This document shows, in pieces, positions 2,155-54,772 of a stretch of 64,000 bases of DNA. Position numbers and translations under genes: made by a program. How positions within the stretch are numbered: the stretch's first letter is position 1; each line of letters starts with the position of its first letter. This DNA comes from an uncultured Erysipelotrichaceae bacterium. GTDB taxonomy: Bacteria > Bacillota_I > Bacilli_A > RFN20 > CAG-826. A model generated the notes under the pieces. The model was not told the DNA's origin. It searched no databases and was given only the letters and a program-made list of their open reading frames with translations. The stretch spans positions 34,166 through 98,165 of the forward strand of contig OMVV01000004.1 of assembly GCA_900314585.1 (NCBI GenBank), given 5' to 3'.

Positions 2155-3207
2155 TTTTAAAATTTCTTTTGTTAGTTCAGAGAATATGTCTTCGTCTTTG
2201 ACGGTCTTGATAATATTCTCTTTTTTAAATATTACCCATTGGCCTTTTCCACCTGCACAACCAATGTCTGCGCGTTTAGCTTCGCCTGGGCCATTGACGA
2301 TGCAGCCCATGACCGCAACAGTCTTATTGATGTGATTTGCTTCTAAAAAAGAAGCAATCTTTTTTGCAAGTGGCACTAAATCAACTTGGGTGCGACCGCA
2401 TGTTGGACAAGAAATAAGGTTTGGATAATCGTTGCGAATCTCTAAATCTTTAAGAAGTCTACGGCAAGCACGAACCTCTTCTTGTGGTTCATCAGATAAG
2501 GAAATACGAATTGTATCTCCGATACCATCTAAAAGGATTGGTGCTAAACCGGCAGTTGAACGGATTAAACCGACATCTTTTGGTCCAGCTTCAGTAATTC
2601 CAACGTGAAGCGGATATGAGAATGTTTTAGAAGCAAGACGATACGCTTCAACAGTTTCAAGAACATGACTTCCCTTAAGGGAAATGACAATATCATGAAA
2701 GTCTAAATCTTCTAAAATCTTAATTGTGCGACGGGCTGATTCAACGAGTTCTTTGGCACGCACAACATTCGTATCGTCATTAACTTGTTTATCGATTGAT
2801 CCTGAATTAACTCCAACACGGATTGGAATATGTTTTTCTTTGCAGAGAGAAACGACTTTTTCGATATTTTCTTTGCCGCCAATATTTCCTGGGTTTAAAC
2901 GGATAGCATTAACACCAGAATTGATTGATTCTATCGCTAAGCGATAGTCAAAGTGAATATCTGCAATTAAAGGAATATTAATTTGTTTAACGATTTCCTT
3001 AATGGCTTTAGCGTCATCCATGTCTAAAACAGACACACGCATTAAGTCTGCACCCAAGGCTGCGCATTCATTGATTTGCTTAACAACTTCAGCAACCTTT
3101 TCGGTCTTTATGTTACACATTGATTGGATTAAAACTTTGTTTTCGCCACCAATGGTAATATCACCAACACGGATTTTCTTTGTCTTTTCTCTAGCTAAGT
3201 TTGCCAT
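2149..3207 (-). CDS. ispG: 4-hydroxy-3-methylbut-2-en-1-yl diphosphate synthase (MEP pathway)
   Basis: Full-length IspG/GcpE-like sequence (KIRVGDITIGG...RVSV...CPTCGRT...GCIVNGPGE with the Fe-S cysteines). Confidence 0.95.
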   Translation of the reverse strand: MANLAREKTKKIRVGDITIGGENKVLIQSMCNIKTEKVAEVVKQINECAALGADLMRVSVLDMDDAKAIKEIVKQINIPLIADIHFDYRLAIESINSGVNAIRLNPGNIGGKENIEKVVSLCKEKHIPIRVGVNSGSIDKQVNDDTNVVRAKELVESARRTIKILEDLDFHDIVISLKGSHVLETVEAYRLASKTFSYPLHVGITEAGPKDVGLIRSTAGLAPILLDGIGDTIRISLSDEPQEEVRACRRLLKDLEIRNDYPNLISCPTCGRTQVDLVPLAKKIASFLEANHINKTVAVMGCIVNGPGEAKRADIGCAGGKGQWVIFKKENIIKTVKDEDIFSELTKEILKL

Positions 3208-3295
3208 AAAATGATTATAACAAAAGAGTAAATATCTTGTAGATATATTTTTTTCACTATGGTATTATTCTACTTGCGAAAGTAAGGAGATAGTT

Positions 3296-3448
3296 ATGCC
3301 AAGAGATAATATCACACTTAAATGCACTGTTTGTGGTGAAGAAAATTACATCACATCCAAAAATAAAAAAGAACATCCTGATAGATTAGAGACAAGTAAA
3401 TATTGTCCTAAATGCAAAAAGCATACAGTGCATAAGGAGAAAAAGTAA
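3296..3448 (+). CDS. rpmG: 50S ribosomal protein L33
   Basis: 50-codon ORF below the track cutoff: [50 protein letters not shown], with the CxxC...CxxC zinc ribbon. AAGGAG RBS lies 7 nt upstream. Confidence 0.9.
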
Positions 3449-3468
3449 GGATTAATCCTTATTTTTTT
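3447..3468 (+). terminator. Intrinsic terminator after rpmG
   Basis: AAGGAT-ta-ATCCTT hairpin followed by ATTTTTTT. Confidence 0.6.
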
Positions 3469-3475
3469 ATAAATC

Positions 3476-4117
3476 ATGCTCGATTCATTTATTTCCCGTA
3501 AAGCCTGCAACACCTACATTCTTTATAACGAAGCTAAAGAAGCTATTTTGGTCGATCCAGGTTTTAATGTTGGGAATAAATTAATTGAACATATTCAAAA
3601 AATCGATGTAAAAGTCGTCGCTATTTTATTAACGCATGCTCATTATGACCACATCGCGGGATTAGAAGATGTCGTAAATCTATTCCCAAACGCTAAGGTC
3701 TATATCAGTGAAGATGAAGTTGAGCTATTAGACAATCCAAACTTAAATCTTTCAAGATTTGGAGATGATTGGCTAAATAAGAGTTTGACTTTTCTTCCAA
3801 AGAATCTAATGAAGTTAAGCGATGGGGAAGTATTCGAAGAAGCATCTTATCAAATTAAGATGATCAAAACTCCGTTCCACACACAAGGTAGTGCCTGCTT
3901 TTATGTTGAAAGTGAGAATATTTTATTCTCAGGAGACACTTTATTCTATACGACGATTGGTCGAACTGATTTGCCCACTGGTTCAAATCGATTAGTAGAA
4001 TCGAGTTTATCAAAGTTATTAAAACTCCCTTTATCTACCAAAGTCTACCCAGGTCATGGCGTTATGACGAGTCTAGAAAGGGAGAGCAAATATAATGCAT
4101 ATTTGCGAAATATCTAA
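3476..4117 (+). CDS. MBL-fold metallo-hydrolase (glyoxalase II-like)
   Basis: THAHYDH (HxHxDH) motif plus downstream His/Asp ligands. Length ~210 aa. Confidence 0.8.
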   Translation: MLDSFISRKACNTYILYNEAKEAILVDPGFNVGNKLIEHIQKIDVKVVAILLTHAHYDHIAGLEDVVNLFPNAKVYISEDEVELLDNPNLNLSRFGDDWLNKSLTFLPKNLMKLSDGEVFEEASYQIKMIKTPFHTQGSACFYVESENILFSGDTLFYTTIGRTDLPTGSNRLVESSLSKLLKLPLSTKVYPGHGVMTSLERESKYNAYLRNI

Positions 4118-4154
4118 TTTTAGATATAATAGTTAATGTTTTGGAGGAAAAATA

Positions 4155-4709
4155 ATGAACGTTACAGAATTAAGACCAGGTAACTATTTCATTGATGAAG
4201 GCAATCTTTATCAAGTCTTAGATATTTTGCTTAACAAGACTGCTATGAGAAAAATGGTCGCTAAAGTTAAAGCAAAAAATATGCGTTCTGGCGCAATTAT
4301 TGAATTAGCTCGTAACTCTGGTTACGATGTTGAAAAAGCTGTTCTTAGCAAAAAGAAAATGGTTTATCTATATGACTCAGGCGATGCTTTAGTCTTCATG
4401 GATAACAATACTTATGATCAAATCGAAATTCAAAAATCACGTTTGGAATGGGAGATGAATTTCTTAATTTCAAATGCTGAAATCGATATTCTCTTCTATG
4501 AAGATGAAATCTTAGGTATCACATTACCATCCAGCGTAGCCTTAAAGATCATCGATTGTGAACCAGCCGTTAGAGGCGATACAGTCAACAAGGCTATGAA
4601 GTTCGCTACTGTTGAAACAGGATTCAAATTAAAAGTCCCATTATTCATCGATAATGGTGAAACCATTCTTGTTCGCACAGATACAGGCGACTACGATGGT
4701 AGAGCATAA
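4155..4709 (+). CDS. efp: Elongation factor P
   Basis: Typical EF-P N-terminus (ELRPGNYF...) and length. GGAGG RBS. Confidence 0.95.
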   Translation: MNVTELRPGNYFIDEGNLYQVLDILLNKTAMRKMVAKVKAKNMRSGAIIELARNSGYDVEKAVLSKKKMVYLYDSGDALVFMDNNTYDQIEIQKSRLEWEMNFLISNAEIDILFYEDEILGITLPSSVALKIIDCEPAVRGDTVNKAMKFATVETGFKLKVPLFIDNGETILVRTDTGDYDGRA

Positions 4710-4723
4710 TAGGAGGCACGACA

Positions 4724-4948
4724 ATGGTTAATTTACAAGTTGGAGCCTTCGTTGGTATTATCATTGGTTTAATCCTTCTTGGAGCAGTGTTAGGATTCTT
4801 CATTTCTAGATACGTCTTCAAACGTCAATTACAAAAGAATCCTCCTATCAATGAGAACATGATTAGAGCGATGTTTATGCAGATGGGTCGCAAGCCTTCT
4901 GAATCACAAATCAGAGCCGTCATGAACTCCATGAAAAAGAATCAATAA
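4724..4948 (+). CDS. UPF0154/YneF-family small membrane protein
   Basis: One N-terminal TM helix followed by KNPPINENMIRAMFMQMGRKPSESQI, close to the Bacillus YneF pattern. AGGAGG RBS. Confidence 0.75.
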   Translation: MVNLQVGAFVGIIIGLILLGAVLGFFISRYVFKRQLQKNPPINENMIRAMFMQMGRKPSESQIRAVMNSMKKNQ

Positions 4949-46276: not shown

Positions 46277-46385
46277 GTAAATACCTCTACTTTCTCACTC
46301 AAGACTCGCTATTAAGGTCTATTGCTTCGCAATAAGTTAGGAACCTTTTCTAGGCGGTTGTAGCTTGTGAGGCAACAACGCTAAT
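46277..46385 (-). promoter_or_regulatory. Structured 5' leader of rplU-prp-rpmA (candidate L21 ribosomal-protein leader)
   Basis: ~105-nt untranslated leader between a good promoter and rplU. Contains hairpins GCGTTGT..ACAACCGC and ATTGC-gaa-GCAAT. L21 leaders are known at this position in Bacillota. I have not compared it to a covariance model. Confidence 0.4.
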
Positions 46386-51261: not shown

Positions 51262-51415
51262 CAAAATAAAAAAGTATCTCTAAGGAACGATTTACTTCGC
51301 GGTACCATCCTTATTCAATACTTTGTATTGCACTTAATTAATTGATCTTTAACGCAGACCTACGATGACTCTCATCATCTCCAAAGGAGTGGCAAGTTCC
51401 TTTATTAGAGTACAT
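51262..51415 (-). promoter_or_regulatory. T-box riboswitch leader of alaS
   Basis: The minus strand carries AAUAAGGAUGGUACCGCG (plus-strand 51298-51310 = CGCGGTACCATCC), the conserved T-box sequence. It is embedded in a terminator helix (AAGTAT..AAGGA / TCCTT..ATACTT) followed by TTTTTTATTTT, just upstream of the alaS RBS. Confidence 0.7.
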
Positions 51416-51554
51416 AAACTATATATCAAAATTTATATTAAATAAATATTTTTAATAAGAAAATATTGCGTATATGAATAGAATTTTTAGGGATTTTTTA
51501 AAAAAATCTTTGTTTCTTAGGCTAATTGCTCTATGATTTAAGACAGAAAGAAAG

Positions 51555-51632
51555 ATGGCTATGAATAGAAATTATTTAAATATTTCTAACTCCAAAAGCT
51601 ATTTTTACTTTGGTTATTTTTATTTTAGGTAA
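51555..51632 (+). CDS. Candidate regulatory leader peptide, Tyr/Phe-rich (25 aa)
   Basis: MAMNRNYLNISNSKSYFYFGYFYFR*. Eight of the last ten codons are Tyr or Phe. Preceded by a purine-rich AGAAAGAAAG and a TTGTTT-16-TATGAT promoter-like sequence (51510-51537). Followed by alternative hairpins and a terminator. Confidence 0.4.
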   Translation: MAMNRNYLNISNSKSYFYFGYFYFR

Positions 51633-51694
51633 GTGTTTCCTATCTTAAAAATGACAGGTGGGAGACATAAGTCAAACACCTGGAAATAAGATAG

Positions 51695-51725
51695 CCCGGT
51701 GTTTGCTCCCGGGATTTATTTTTTG
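51695..51725 (+). terminator. Attenuator terminator upstream of ABC importer operon
   Basis: CCCGG (51695-51699) pairs with CCGGG (51709-51713), followed by ATTTATTTTTT, 17 nt before the operon's start codon (its GGAG RBS lies in this gap). Its 5' arm overlaps GGTGTTT (51698-51704), which can instead pair with AAACACC (51674-51680). Confidence 0.5.
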
Positions 51726-51741
51726 AAAAAGGAGAACAAAA

Positions 51742-52734
51742 ATGAAAAAACTAAATCTACTTGCTTTATCAGCAATGGCGATGTCTGTTGGTGCCTTATC
51801 AGGCTGTTCGAAAGCTGATTACACCATTGGTGTACTTCTTCCAGTTAGACATGAAGCTCTCCAACTTGCTGAAAAAGGATTCGTTGAAGCTTTGAAAGAA
51901 GCCGGCCTTGTTGAAGGCAAAGACTTCGCGATCAAAGAAAAGAATGCTGATGGTGATGAAGCTGCATTAAATTCCTTAGCTAAAGATCTTGTCTCTTCTT
52001 GTGACATGACTCTTGGTACAGGTACTGGTGCTTCTCAATCACTTCAATCAGCCGCAAAAGATGGCGGTTCAGTTAAACCAATCTTATTCACCGCTGTCAC
52101 TGATCCAGAGGGCGCAAAACTTGTCGACAATGTCGATCATAGATCAGCAAATATCACTGGTGCATCCGATGCTCAACCGGTTGCTGAACAGATCGCTTTG
52201 ATCAAGGATATCATTCCAGAAGTCGATAAGATTGGTGTTATCTATTCCCAAAACGAACAAAATAGCGTTGTTCAAAAAGACCAAGTTAAGGCTATTGGCC
52301 TTATGCTCGGTATCGAAGTCGTTGAAAAAGGTGTTAGCGAAGTCAGCGAAATTTCACCAGCTGCCGAAGCTTTAGCAGCTACTTCAGGACTTGATGCAAT
52401 CTACGTTCCAACCGATAACAAGATTGCCGCTAATATGAATGCTATTAACCAAGCTTGTAATTCAAATCACGTTTTAGCAATGTGTGGCGAATTCGGTGAA
52501 GTTGAAACTGGCGGACATATTTCCTTCTCATTCGACTATGAAATGTTAGGAAAAGAAACTGGTAAGCTTGCTTACGAAATCATTAAAAATGGTAAAACAG
52601 CTGCTGAACTTCCAGTTCAATTCATGACAAAAACTAACTGTGAAATTCGTTATTCCAGCAAAAACTTAGCAGCTTCTGGTATTGAATTACCTGAATCTGT
52701 CAAAAATCGTGCTAAAGATATTAGCCTTAAATAA
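51742..52734 (+). CDS. ABC transporter substrate-binding lipoprotein (COG2984 / ABC_sub_bind family, TrpX-like)
   Basis: Lipobox LSG-C, then IGVLLPVRHEALQLAEKGFVEALKEAG...FTAVTDPEGAKLV, typical of this family. GGAG RBS. Confidence 0.85.
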   Translation: MKKLNLLALSAMAMSVGALSGCSKADYTIGVLLPVRHEALQLAEKGFVEALKEAGLVEGKDFAIKEKNADGDEAALNSLAKDLVSSCDMTLGTGTGASQSLQSAAKDGGSVKPILFTAVTDPEGAKLVDNVDHRSANITGASDAQPVAEQIALIKDIIPEVDKIGVIYSQNEQNSVVQKDQVKAIGLMLGIEVVEKGVSEVSEISPAAEALAATSGLDAIYVPTDNKIAANMNAINQACNSNHVLAMCGEFGEVETGGHISFSFDYEMLGKETGKLAYEIIKNGKTAAELPVQFMTKTNCEIRYSSKNLAASGIELPESVKNRAKDISLK

Positions 52735-52736
52735 AA

Positions 52737-53711
52737 ATGCAGGTTTTAGATATTGTTTTAAATATATTGTCTAGTGGTTTGCCTTGTGCGCTTCTAGCCT
52801 TAGGTATCTTTTTAACATATCGACTTTTAGATTTTGCCGATTTAACCGCTGAAGGATCATTCCTTGTTGGTATGGCTGTAAGCGGAGTACTTATTTATAA
52901 CGAAGTTAATCCTTGGCTTGCAACGCTAGTTTCTCTATTTGCTGGTGCAGGATGTGGAATTGTTACGGGTGTTCTTAACCGCGTGTTAAAAATCCCGAAA
53001 TTATTAAGTGGAATTATCACGATGACCGCCTCAATGTCGATTGTTTTAATCATTTTGGGTGCCGCTCATGATATTCCAAACTTCTTCAATTCCCAATTAT
53101 CCTTCACTAATATCGTTAAAGGTAGCGGACCACAAACAATTTATTCGCTCCTTCAACCATATGATTATCAATTAGGAGTGTTTATTGCTCCTTGGAGCAA
53201 CATTATTAAAGTTGCCATTATGCTTTTGGTTGTTGTTGTAGCGATGGGCCTTATCTATTTCTTCTTCGGAACCGAATATGGAATGGCAATTAGAGCAACT
53301 GGCATGAACGAAAAAATGGCGACTGCTCAAGGTATTAATCCTGATATCGCAACGATCGTTGGAGTCGCAATTTCTAATGCTTTAATCGCTTTAGCAGGCT
53401 CACTATATGTCCAAGAAACCAAAACTGTATCCACCGTTTCTGCGACCGGATATTTAGTTGTTGGTTTAGCTTCCATCTTAATTGGTGAAGCAATATTTGG
53501 TAAACGTAGTTTCAAGAACTGGTTAATTTCCGTTGCTTTAGGCTCAGTTGTTTACTTCATTATCATCACCATTGCGATTCGTCTTGGATTACCAACCGAA
53601 CTTCAAAAACTTCTCTATGCGATTTTAATTACAATCGCCTTATGTCTACCTCTTCTTAAAATGAAGTTATCTTCTTTCAAAAAGAAGAAAGATAAGGAGG
53701 CCACCTTATGA
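52737..53711 (+). CDS. ABC transporter permease (COG4120, BPD_transp_2 type)
   Basis: ~9 TM segments. LALGIFLTYRLLDFADLTAEGSF N-terminal signature of the family. Confidence 0.85.
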   Translation: MQVLDIVLNILSSGLPCALLALGIFLTYRLLDFADLTAEGSFLVGMAVSGVLIYNEVNPWLATLVSLFAGAGCGIVTGVLNRVLKIPKLLSGIITMTASMSIVLIILGAAHDIPNFFNSQLSFTNIVKGSGPQTIYSLLQPYDYQLGVFIAPWSNIIKVAIMLLVVVVAMGLIYFFFGTEYGMAIRATGMNEKMATAQGINPDIATIVGVAISNALIALAGSLYVQETKTVSTVSATGYLVVGLASILIGEAIFGKRSFKNWLISVALGSVVYFIIITIAIRLGLPTELQKLLYAILITIALCLPLLKMKLSSFKKKKDKEATL

Positions 53712-54772
53712 TTGAATTAAAAAATGTCACTAAAGTATTTAACTTAACTGGCAACGAACTCGATCGTAGAGTGGCGTTAGACCATGTTAATTTAACAATC
53801 AATGATGGTGAATTCGTCACGATTATTGGTTCAAACGGTTCAGGTAAATCCACCACAATGAACATTATTTCTGGTTCACTTTTCCCTGATGAAGGAAGAG
53901 TTATTCTTTCAGGTATGGACATTACCGATATGAAAGAACATCAAAGAGCAAAATATTTCGGTCGTGTGTTCCAAGATCCAATGATGGGCACCACCGCTGA
54001 AATGTCTTGTTTAGAGAACCTTGAAATTGCTTATCGACGTGGCAAATTCCACTCTCCAATCAAATGGGGCTTCTCCAATAATATAGTAAAACTATATTAC
54101 AAGCGACTTTTATCCGAATTTTCTCTCGGCTTAGAAGATCGACTTAACCAAAAGGTTGGAGTTATGTCTGGAGGTCAAAGACAGGCCTTAACTCTTCTTA
54201 TGGCAGCGACTGATCCTCGACTCGACACCAAAGCTGAATTCATTAAGATGTATCTTGATGTTCATACTGGTGAACTTAGAGCAAAGATCACTAAAGACAC
54301 ACCAAAAGAAGAAAAACAAAGAATTCGTAAAGAAATTCAACAAATTAGAAGCAAAGGCCGCAAAGTCACTGAAGCTTTCTATGATGAACGCTTAGAAGAA
54401 TACAAAAAAGCGTTAGCCGTAGCGAAGAATGATGATGAAAAATTAGATGCCTACATTGCCTTTGGCAATGCTCTTCACGAATACAATCAAGATAGACGTA
54501 TTCTTCTTCTTGATGAACACACTGCTGCACTTGATCCAAAAACCGCTAAAAAGGTCTTGGATTTAACAGATAAGATTGTTCGTGATAACAAATTAACAAC
54601 ATTTATGATTACCCATAATATGCGTGACGCAATTACTTATGGTGATCGACTCATCATGTTCCATAGCGGACACATCATTTATGATGTTCGTGGCGAAGAA
54701 AAGAAAAAGCTCACCGTTGAAAAGTTATTAAAACTATTCAATGAAGCTGATGAACTTGCGGAACTTGATTAA
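53708..54772 (+). CDS. ABC transporter ATP-binding protein (COG1101 type) with a large internal insertion
   Basis: Walker A GSNGSGKST, Q-loop RVFQDP, signature MSGGQRQ (res 152-158), Walker B ILLLDE (res 265-270), H-loop ITHN. About 95 extra residues lie between the signature and Walker B. Confidence 0.9.
   Translation: MIELKNVTKVFNLTGNELDRRVALDHVNLTINDGEFVTIIGSNGSGKSTTMNIISGSLFPDEGRVILSGMDITDMKEHQRAKYFGRVFQDPMMGTTAEMSCLENLEIAYRRGKFHSPIKWGFSNNIVKLYYKRLLSEFSLGLEDRLNQKVGVMSGGQRQALTLLMAATDPRLDTKAEFIKMYLDVHTGELRAKITKDTPKEEKQRIRKEIQQIRSKGRKVTEAFYDERLEEYKKALAVAKNDDEKLDAYIAFGNALHEYNQDRRILLLDEHTAALDPKTAKKVLDLTDKIVRDNKLTTFMITHNMRDAITYGDRLIMFHSGHIIYDVRGEEKKKLTVEKLLKLFNEADELAELD

Follow-up and report, generated by a model that had tools for sequence, protein, structure and literature searches.

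The question raised by this locus is what a short open reading frame (ORF) that ends in a run of Tyr and Phe codons is doing directly ahead of the operon of an ATP-binding cassette (ABC) importer. The locus lies on a 64,000-nucleotide (nt) stretch from an uncultured Erysipelotrichaceae bacterium (contig OMVV01000004.1, positions 34,166 to 98,165 of the forward strand), and this whole stretch is called the window throughout. The ORF, at 51555-51632 on the plus strand, encodes MAMNRNYLNISNSKSYFYFGYFYFR, and Tyr or Phe make up eight of its last ten codons, with an end that reads Y-F-Y-F-G-Y-F-Y-F-R. It is the sole plus-strand ORF in the 64-kb window with at least six Tyr or Phe residues (Y/F) in eight. 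An initial annotation of the window had proposed a ribosome-mediated attenuator here. Direct reading of the sequence found every feature it had listed in its place, and the proposal itself is largely supported by conservation of the ORF in distant relatives, by covariation of the RNA helices, by folding under constraint, and by the swap of the leader for Tyr and Phe T-box sensors in some homologs. On this comparative and modelled evidence the locus is likely to be a leader-peptide transcription attenuator which senses Tyr-tRNA and Phe-tRNA and controls an aromatic amino-acid ABC importer. The leader appears to hold the parts that such an attenuator would need: a short 5' ORF, a cluster of regulatory codons, a terminator, an antiterminator that overlaps it, and a predicted geometry in which the position of the ribosome chooses between the two.

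The same kind of ORF recurs upstream of distant homologs of the importer's substrate-binding protein, which belongs to Pfam family PF04392. A set of 154 loci encoding binding-protein homologs 33-54% identical was taken from species-representative genomes and metagenomes, and was searched for ORFs with an ATG start, 10-60 codons and at least six Y/F per eight-residue window, lying at most 500 nt upstream of the gene. As a control, 1.42 Mb of sequence from the same loci was used. A Y/F-run ORF was found upstream of the PF04392 gene in 61 of the 154 loci, at 0.72 per kb compared with 0.004 per kb in the control, an enrichment of about 170-fold. Of the six control matches, three are themselves leaders, which precede a second, tandem binding-protein paralog. 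No enrichment upstream of the homologs was seen for runs of other amino acids (Trp, His and others). The leader ORF always sits immediately 5' of the binding-protein gene on the same strand, and the gene order of binding protein, permease and ATPase is the same in relatives. Example leader peptides are MTKNFNSQFYIYYYYYFPR, MKIRSFAQSYYYYYYPRKIV and MKRAFYYFYSYYYPRDNQ, and MLNKATHLGNLKAFYYFSFFR from Streptococcus. The carriers include many uncultured Bacilli metagenome-assembled genomes (MAGs) labelled Erysipelotrichaceae, Acholeplasmatales or Mollicutes, together with Streptococcus salivarius, S. raffinosi, S. caballi, one genome from Carnobacteriaceae and one Leptolinea (Chloroflexi) MAG.

These leaders also carry the signals expected of translated and terminated transcripts. 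A Shine-Dalgarno (SD) match of at least 5 nt precedes 53% of them, compared with 6.8% of control ATGs, and several related leaders show clear -35 and -10 boxes. Each of the 49 distinct leaders examined has a hairpin followed by a T-run between its stop codon and the start of the binding-protein gene. Both synonyms are used for each amino acid (TAT 162 and TAC 85 for Tyr, TTT 124 and TTC 28 for Phe), and the peptide sequence outside the Y/F run is not conserved between clades. The leaders fall into at least two RNA architectures without common sequence, and what the two have in common is the codon run, the SD and ATG, and a hairpin and then a T-run before the binding-protein gene.

The second architecture is found in L004-L013, L015, L016, L029, L030 and L080, with leaders about 100-250 nt upstream of position 3001 of those loci. 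There, the Tyr run is followed by Pro-Arg codons CCAAG(A/G), which pair with a CUUGG immediately 3' of the stop codon, and a second pairing joins AAUCAAUAA to UUAUUGAUU. Repeated GUUAUUAC/GUAAUAAC motifs form the terminator and its competitors in part of this group and in several other loci.

Closer to the window, binding-protein homologs 63-97% identical were found on gut metagenome contigs and their loci were fetched. The metagenome scan contributed few close relatives of the window. The 25-codon ORF that had been described at 51555-51632 is present, but it is the second ATG that relatives conserve, which makes the leader a 23-codon frame at 51561-51632. All 8 sequence-distinct relatives of the clade retain the frame from the ATG equivalent to 51561. 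The frame is intact in loci L085-L095, whose binding proteins are 63-78% identical. The clade consensus is M[NI]R[NK]xxx[IV]S[NS]SK[SY]YFYFGYFYFR, followed by the stop codon. Nucleotide changes are nearly absent, within the close clade, from the Y/F codons and from roughly the following 90 nt, and the only variable codons of the ORF coincide with a 9-nt hairpin loop. The ribosome-binding site (RBS) had been called weak, which is true of the window clade with its 3-nt SD match; elsewhere the 53% of leaders noted above have at least 5 nt.

Downstream of the stop codon, the RNA can form two mutually exclusive sets of structures, which are listed with their coordinates in Table 1. One consists of helix A and the antiterminator (helix C), and the other of helix B, an anti-antiterminator, and the terminator (helix D). 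The sets exclude each other through shared sequence: GGUG is common to helices A and B, ACACC to B and C, and the 5' arm of the terminator to C and D; together with the loop (51696-51705) this arm doubles as the 3' arm of the antiterminator. The 186-nt leader as a whole folds with a z-score of -3.4 relative to 200 shuffles.

The helices were evaluated on 14 distinct leaders of the window architecture. In its proper register helix A pairs 162 of 182 cells, compared with 93-118 in shifted registers, while helix B pairs 88 of 112 and helix C 139 of 168, with shifted registers pairing much worse. On alignment A2, the A and C set is 90.9% paired (44-57% when slid) with 13 double-sided changes, and the B and D set is 92.8% paired (18-53% when slid) with 14; in neither case did any of 500 shuffles do equally well. 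The changes include double-sided covariation in the extension of helix B (A-U, U-A, C-G), A-U to G-C double changes at two positions of the antiterminator, and C-G to U-A changes at three pairs of the terminator stem. Compensatory change thus supports both alternative sets.

Several details of the original pairing scheme fared differently. The terminator, CCCGG/CCGGG with its T-run, is as it had been described, and its stem covaries. GGTGTTT (51698-704) and AAACACC (51674-80) are likewise present as an antiterminator that overlaps the 5' arm of the terminator and covaries, and TATCTTA and TAAGATA stand at 51641-47 and 51687-93. The pairing of GTGTTT (51633-38) with AAACAC (within 51674-80), which had been taken as the main 1:2 helix, had to be given up: it is not conserved, relatives having TTGTTT or TCGTTT, and segment 1 pairs with GGTGGGAGACA instead, covariation favouring the partner GGGAGACA. 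The CAGGTG/CACCTG hairpin, which had been seen as a complication, is better read as the anti-antiterminator, helix B.

Put together, these elements suggest how the switch may work. Transcription would start near 51545 and produce the 23-codon leader, followed by five RNA segments past the stop codon. In the readthrough state segment 1 would pair with 2 (helix A) and segment 3 with 4 (helix C, the antiterminator); in the termination state segment 2 would pair with 3 (helix B) and segment 4 with 5 (the terminator, followed by its T-run). When Tyr and Phe are plentiful, the ribosome would reach the stop codon and cover segment 1, so that helix B and the terminator form and transcription stops before the binding-protein gene. 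When Tyr-tRNA or Phe-tRNA is scarce, the ribosome would stall in the Y/F run and leave segment 1 free, and helix A would then remove segment 2. With segment 2 removed, segment 3 would capture segment 4, no terminator would form, and the operon would be transcribed. With no ribosome at all, the end of the ORF would pair with segment 3 as helix E, and because segment 3 is sequestered in this way the terminator would form without translation. By eye, the window clade, L002 and L096 retain helix E, which L001 and L014 lack. We infer that the leader is translated, that ribosomes stall in it, and that it responds to amino-acid supply.

The scheme was modelled by folding the leader at equilibrium with a ribosome-sized stretch made unpairable. 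Without a ribosome the probability of the terminator is 0.87, with helix E holding segment 3. With the A-site at the stop codon it is 0.99, and helix B and the terminator form; with the A-site at 51612-51618 it falls to 0.12-0.17, and helix A and the antiterminator form. A stall at 4-5 codons inside the run gives an antiterminator probability of 0.7-0.99 for every footprint tested. Placing the leading edge of the ribosome anywhere from +9 to +17 of the A-site merely slides the sensitive window of 4-5 codons within YFYFGYFYF, and with the ribosome at the stop codon the outcome is termination in every case. The same pattern, defined as a terminator probability of at most 0.2 inside the run and at least 0.6 at the stop, was reproduced in 21 of the 49 distinct leaders. 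In this simulation terminator hairpins were limited to at most 34 nt, as an unrestricted finder sometimes took hairpins containing the antiterminator in the window architecture. Folding of truncated transcripts, meant to show whether the 5' arm of the terminator is already paired when its 3' arm has yet to be transcribed, carries no weight here: AT-rich 5' arms of terminators pair with something in nearly every state.

In one further helix, P0, the first Y/F codons are paired with the purine-rich stretch around the RBS and start of the leader, and P0-like duplexes are found in L001 (-21.4 kcal/mol), in L002 and L014 (TAGGAG:CUUCUA) and in L096. Helix P0 could limit translation of the leader to a single round, or it could be a mere encounter of purine-rich with U-rich sequence.

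Table 1. Coordinates of the leader elements and importer genes in the window, and of T-boxes upstream of homologs (last three rows, in the coordinates of each locus). MFE, minimum free energy structure.
Feature	Position (strand)	Details
Promoter-like site	51510..51537 (+)	-35 TTGTTT at 51510-15, 16-nt spacer, -10 TATGAT at 51532-37; read from sequence
Purine-rich weak RBS region	51546..51560 (+)	AGAAAGAAAGATGGC; also 5' arm of helix P0
Helix P0	51547-51560 with 51598-51611 (+)	RBS/start region with first Y/F codons; in MFE; duplex -14.4 kcal/mol
Conserved leader ORF, 23 codons	51561..51632 (+)	Encodes MNRNYLNISNSKSYFYFGYFYFR, then stop; extra in-frame ATG at 51555 in this strain
Regulatory codon run	51600..51626 (+)	TAT TTT TAC TTT GGT TAT TTT TAT TTT (Y F Y F G Y F Y F)
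Helix E, 5' arm	51623..51630 (+)	TTTTAGGT (last codons and start of stop); pairs with ACCTGGAA at 51678-51685; MFE of ribosome-free leader
Segment 1	51633..51645 (+)	GTGTTTCCTATCT; directly after stop; 5' arm of helix A
Helix A	51633-45 with 51656-68	3' partner GGTGGGAGACA; sequesters segment 2
Segment 2	51655..51668 (+)	CAGGTGGGAGACAT; 3' arm of helix A or 5' arm of helix B
Segment 3	51673..51685 (+)	CAAACACCTGGAA; 3' arm of helix B, 5' arm of helix C, or partner in helix E
Helix B, anti-antiterminator	51655-60 with 51677-82	CAGGUG with CACCUG; extended by UCUUA/UAAGA
Helix C, antiterminator	51673-83 with 51696-705	CAAACACC(U)GG with CCGGUGUUUG
Helix D, terminator	51695..51713 (+)	CCCGG (51695-99), loop tgtttgctc, CCGGG (51709-13); -8.0 kcal/mol
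Terminator T-run	51715..51724 (+)	TTTATTTTTT; terminator 27 nt before binding-protein gene
Substrate-binding lipoprotein gene	51742..52734 (+)	PF04392, Pfam E = 8.6e-58
Permease gene	52737-53711 (+)	PF02653; same operon as binding-protein gene
ABC ATPase gene	53708-54772 (+)	PF00005; same operon; permease and ATPase together 52737..54772
T-box, L069	2691-2940	Specifier UAC (Tyr)
T-box, L048	2418-2678	Specifier UUC (Phe), then C in place of the usual purine
T-boxes, L057, L099 and L101	89-342, 397-652 and 747-1000	Same GAAGUUC context as L048, by sequence

The type of codon run can differ between paralogous transporters. Three genomes have tandem binding-protein paralogs with separate leaders, and in each of them one leader has a Tyr run and the other is Phe-rich. 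In L052, YYYYYCY (MTNSRKYYYYYCYAQVDRCCTSLD) precedes one paralog and FSFSFNFTFFF (MRNCTKFSFSFNFTFFFTQVDRCCTSLG) the other; these two leaders (598-672 and about 1950-2040) have a common peptide tail, QVDRCCTSL, and common downstream RNA, with Phe codons in place of the Tyr run, which suggests that the codon run alone was exchanged after duplication. The leaders of L056 carry FFFFFFF and YYFYGYYY (1582-1668 and 2843-2929), and those of L070 carry FFFFSFF and YYGYY (1180-1248 and about 2596-2667). Some homologs without a leader ORF bear T-boxes instead, with Tyr or Phe specifiers (Table 1). Leader ORFs and T-boxes are two independent sensors of tRNA charging, so together they indicate Tyr and Phe as the amino acids to which this family of transporters is tied.

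The binding protein itself was compared with solved homologs. The initial annotation had called the importer TrpX-type, a name which the protein does not bear out: against the NCBIfam TrpX model (NF041285) it scores 222.9 bits, below the cut-off of 390, and, like the Tyr and Phe binders, it has a Tyr (Tyr266) where the Trp binder SP1069 has Gln284. An aromatic amino acid is bound in each of its homologs in the PDB (6HNI, 3LFT and 3LKV): Tyr in CD0873, Phe in VC_1101 and Trp in SP1069 (PMC6816091). In CD0873, the hydroxyl of the Tyr ligand is bonded by Glu263 while Tyr279 keeps Trp out, and the Gln284 position of SP1069 makes room for the indole ring (PMC6816091). Glu250 and Tyr266 of the window protein align with Glu263 and Tyr279 of CD0873, and both are invariant in 29 relatives. 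CD0873 of C. difficile (PDB 6HNI; PMC6816091) is the closest solved homolog (phmmer E = 4e-40) and shares the pocket Glu and Tyr, although its local identity to the window binding protein is low. The downstream protein is therefore predicted from its sequence to be a CD0873-like Tyr/Phe binder and not TrpX.

Whether the pocket residue alone separates Tyr from Phe importers (Glu for Tyr, Ala for Phe) was also considered, and this rule was rejected. It fits L056 and L070, where the paralogs behind the Phe-rich leaders have Ala in place of the Glu, like the Phe binder, and it fails at the second binding protein of L052 (SBP2) and at the Phe T-box loci. As Glu is found in those, the residue is only a partial guide. 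In the Streptococcus loci (L033, L047 and others), the frame holding the binding-protein homolog is about 650 codons long, from about 2977 to 4941, which suggests a fusion of binding protein and permease.

Several observations count against reading the locus as a tRNA-sensing attenuator, or at least temper it. Its support is wholly comparative or thermodynamic. The covariation sample is small, 14 sequences of which 8 are close, and one of the 14 served to derive the structure. The Y/F codons are invariant at the nucleotide level in the close clade, so coding and RNA constraint are inseparable there. The SD match of the leader is only 3 nt in the window clade, with the RBS predicted to be paired in helix P0, and the terminator is modest, with 5 G-C pairs, a 9-nt loop and -8 kcal/mol. 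At equilibrium, 28 of the 49 leaders show no switch, mostly as their terminator is too stable; we treat this as a limit of the equilibrium model rather than as evidence against the mechanism. The retention of Glu in L052 SBP2 and the Phe T-box loci belongs here as well, as the pocket residue tracks the leader type only partly.

Other explanations of the same features were weighed against these data. The aromatic nascent peptide could be an arrest peptide, like TnaC or SpeFL, which senses a free amino acid or small molecule, or translation speed, and not tRNA charging. Arg, often as Pro-Arg, does stand behind the aromatic run in many leaders, the run is often broken by Gly or Ser, and in the folding model the RNA switch would react to any stall at the run positions. 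However, the Pro-Arg codons CCAAG(A/G) pair with CUUGG past the stop, and in the window the AGG codon is part of helix E, so RNA pairing accounts for the conservation of these codons. An arrest peptide also sits poorly with peptides that are not conserved between clades outside the run, and the swap of Tyr and Phe runs between paralogs and the replacement by Tyr/Phe T-boxes suit sensors of tRNA charging. An importer would moreover be expected to be induced by shortage of its substrate and not by excess, and altogether an arrest peptide appears unlikely. It is less likely still that the leader is a riboswitch-like RNA binding a ligand or protein, with the ORF a by-product of U/A-rich structured sequence. 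That idea would explain why the close clade shows hardly any nucleotide variation in the Y/F codons and the 90 nt that follow, why the ORF varies only in a 9-nt loop, and why the GGTGGGAGAC...AACACC core is conserved in the 14 leaders. Yet the core nucleotides are fully explained by two exclusive, covarying helices, with no pocket-like conserved loop left over, and no Rfam family matches. The second architecture has no RNA sequence in common with this one and still keeps a Y/F ORF in frame with ATG and SD, and alternative-frame ORFs through the codon runs (Leu-rich) are found in only a handful of loci.

A functional peptide (a pheromone, a toxin or an accessory subunit of the transporter), with the hairpins as a plain terminator, would account for an ORF that has its own promoter and terminator, and streptococci do signal with short aromatic or hydrophobic peptides. 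Such a peptide is highly improbable here: Tyr/Phe content alone is conserved and not the sequence, and no regulator or processing gene adjoins the ORF, whose neighbours are the divergent alaS upstream and the ABC operon downstream. A terminator that overlaps a covarying antiterminator would be unneeded at a simple gene end, and the ORF is always directly upstream of a binding-protein gene on the same strand. Chance is the least credible account. AT-rich DNA does yield TAT and TTT codons and fortuitous complementarity; the window has a G+C content of 36.5%, and even the shifted registers of helix A pair 51-65% of cells. Against this stand the 170-fold enrichment, the uniqueness of the ORF on the plus strand of the 64 kb, covariation that beats 500 of 500 shuffles, and the folding z-score of -3.4, by which we regard chance as effectively refuted.

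The leader of this attenuator, as we read it, does not belong to a catalogued RNA family. An Rfam scan of the plus strand over 51500-51741, covering the riboswitches and the Phe, Trp, His, Leu and Thr leaders, gave no match at the gathering score, the best weak matches being unrelated small RNAs with E of at least 0.1, and no family matched in 20 related leaders. Nor did cmscan find a T-box, with its Stem I specifier loop and T-box sequence, on the plus strand at E up to 10. The Infernal scan suggested alongside the initial annotation, as a way to exclude a known riboswitch class, returned no match at the gathering score on the leader strand. A literature search did not find Tyr/Phe leaders described for PF04392/COG2984 transporters; subscription journals were outside its coverage, and an earlier description is possible. 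The mechanism seems to be classical, as in the trp, his and phe attenuators, while the specificity and the target seem to be new.

Among known systems, the E. coli pheL-pheA and pheM-pheST leaders (PMC3082878; Rfam Phe_leader) likewise have a short ORF, an aromatic run near its end and a ribosome-chosen antiterminator or terminator. They are proteobacterial, respond to Phe alone, and have biosynthesis or a tRNA synthetase as their target, whereas the window leader, compared with pheL, has mixed Tyr and Phe codons, an importer target, a low-GC Bacilli host and unrelated RNA sequence. The Corynebacterium glutamicum aroF leader (PMC4046766), with Phe-Tyr-Phe, is a proposed sensor of aromatic supply with similarly mixed codons, but it is actinobacterial, has three regulatory codons and targets a DAHP synthase, and no sequence relationship was seen. 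From a related low-GC lineage (Mollicutes/Bacilli) comes uORFC-13-1 of Acholeplasma aroF (PMC8632094), a predicted Phe-codon upstream ORF by an intrinsic terminator; by its description it differs in its aroF target, in having at least one Phe and no Tyr run, and in being limited to Acholeplasma and environmental sequences. T-box leaders of PF04392 transporters (S. suis trpXYZ, PMC9382623; and L069, L048, L057, L099 and L101) share the transporter family, the uncharged aromatic tRNA signal and the terminator/antiterminator output, but a T-box binds tRNA directly and the window leader would sense it through a translated ORF. Finally, the His leader-peptide attenuators of Firmicutes (PMC2965389, PMC9413887) show classical attenuation within Bacillota, including Erysipelotrichales; they differ in having His codons and in controlling his biosynthesis, hisS or hisZ, and no transporter.

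Beyond the window, we lean towards the broader view, with moderate confidence, that a large family of Tyr- and Phe-dedicated leader attenuators controls PF04392 importers across Bacillota and in at least one Chloroflexi MAG, that these are paralog-specific and interchangeable with T-boxes, and that they include the first Tyr-dedicated leader peptide. If this is true, it would be a clear case of ribosome-mediated attenuation of amino-acid uptake, and not of synthesis, in lineages dominated by T-boxes. It would extend leader-peptide attenuation to tyrosine and to uptake in reduced-genome gut Bacilli, where T-boxes were assumed, and would document repeated swapping of T-box and leader-peptide sensors on one type of operon. 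The leader would also be a substrate label that can be read from sequence, for a poorly annotated family whose members often go by the name of "sugar" or "uncharacterized" ABC transporters, with importers of Tyr recognisable by a Tyr run and importers of Phe by a Phe run. As Streptococcus salivarius can be cultivated, its copy (strain KSS6, NZ_CP145863.1; leader ORF at L047:2620-2685) opens the prediction to testing, and the tandem Tyr/Phe paralogs amount to a natural experiment in specificity. Tyrosine uptake is relevant to gut ecology; one example is the production of p-cresol by C. difficile, in which the homolog CD0873 takes part.

The promoter hexamers TTGTTT and TATGAT, with their 16-nt spacing, are present at 51510-37 as they had been described, and the start site predicted from them would put the ATG at 51561 about 16 nt downstream. 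The -35 hexamer matches 3 of 6 consensus positions, and several relatives retain the block AAAAATCTTTGTTT and an A/T-rich -10. A consensus promoter and terminator scan of this region of the window reported neither. The scanner's thresholds explain its silence (the -35 has only 3 of 6 matches, and the terminator loop is 9 nt where the maximum is 8), and the features are present.

On the other side of the leader, alaS has a T-box of its own on the minus strand at 51280-51417 (cmscan, E up to 10), and so the genome does use T-boxes, yet this operon does not. The alaS T-box scores 51.9 bits against a gathering score of 93, and in it 74 consensus Stem I positions are replaced by 11 nt. What remains is a mini-hairpin, AAAGGA/UCCUUU, with the loop ACUUGCCACU containing GCC-A (an Ala codon and a purine). 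By sequence it resembles the "ultrashort Stem I" T-boxes known from actinobacterial ileS, here with a terminator and in a low-GC Bacilli genome. The sole Rfam match at the gathering score in the window is a ribosomal protein L21 leader (RF00559) on the minus strand at 46292-46369, with 41.4 bits. The ABC ATPase of the importer has 354 amino acids, and its PF00005 match is split into residues 24-167 and a Walker B region at 257-288, with an insertion of about 90 residues between them; the ATPases of relatives are similarly long, at 351-354 amino acids.

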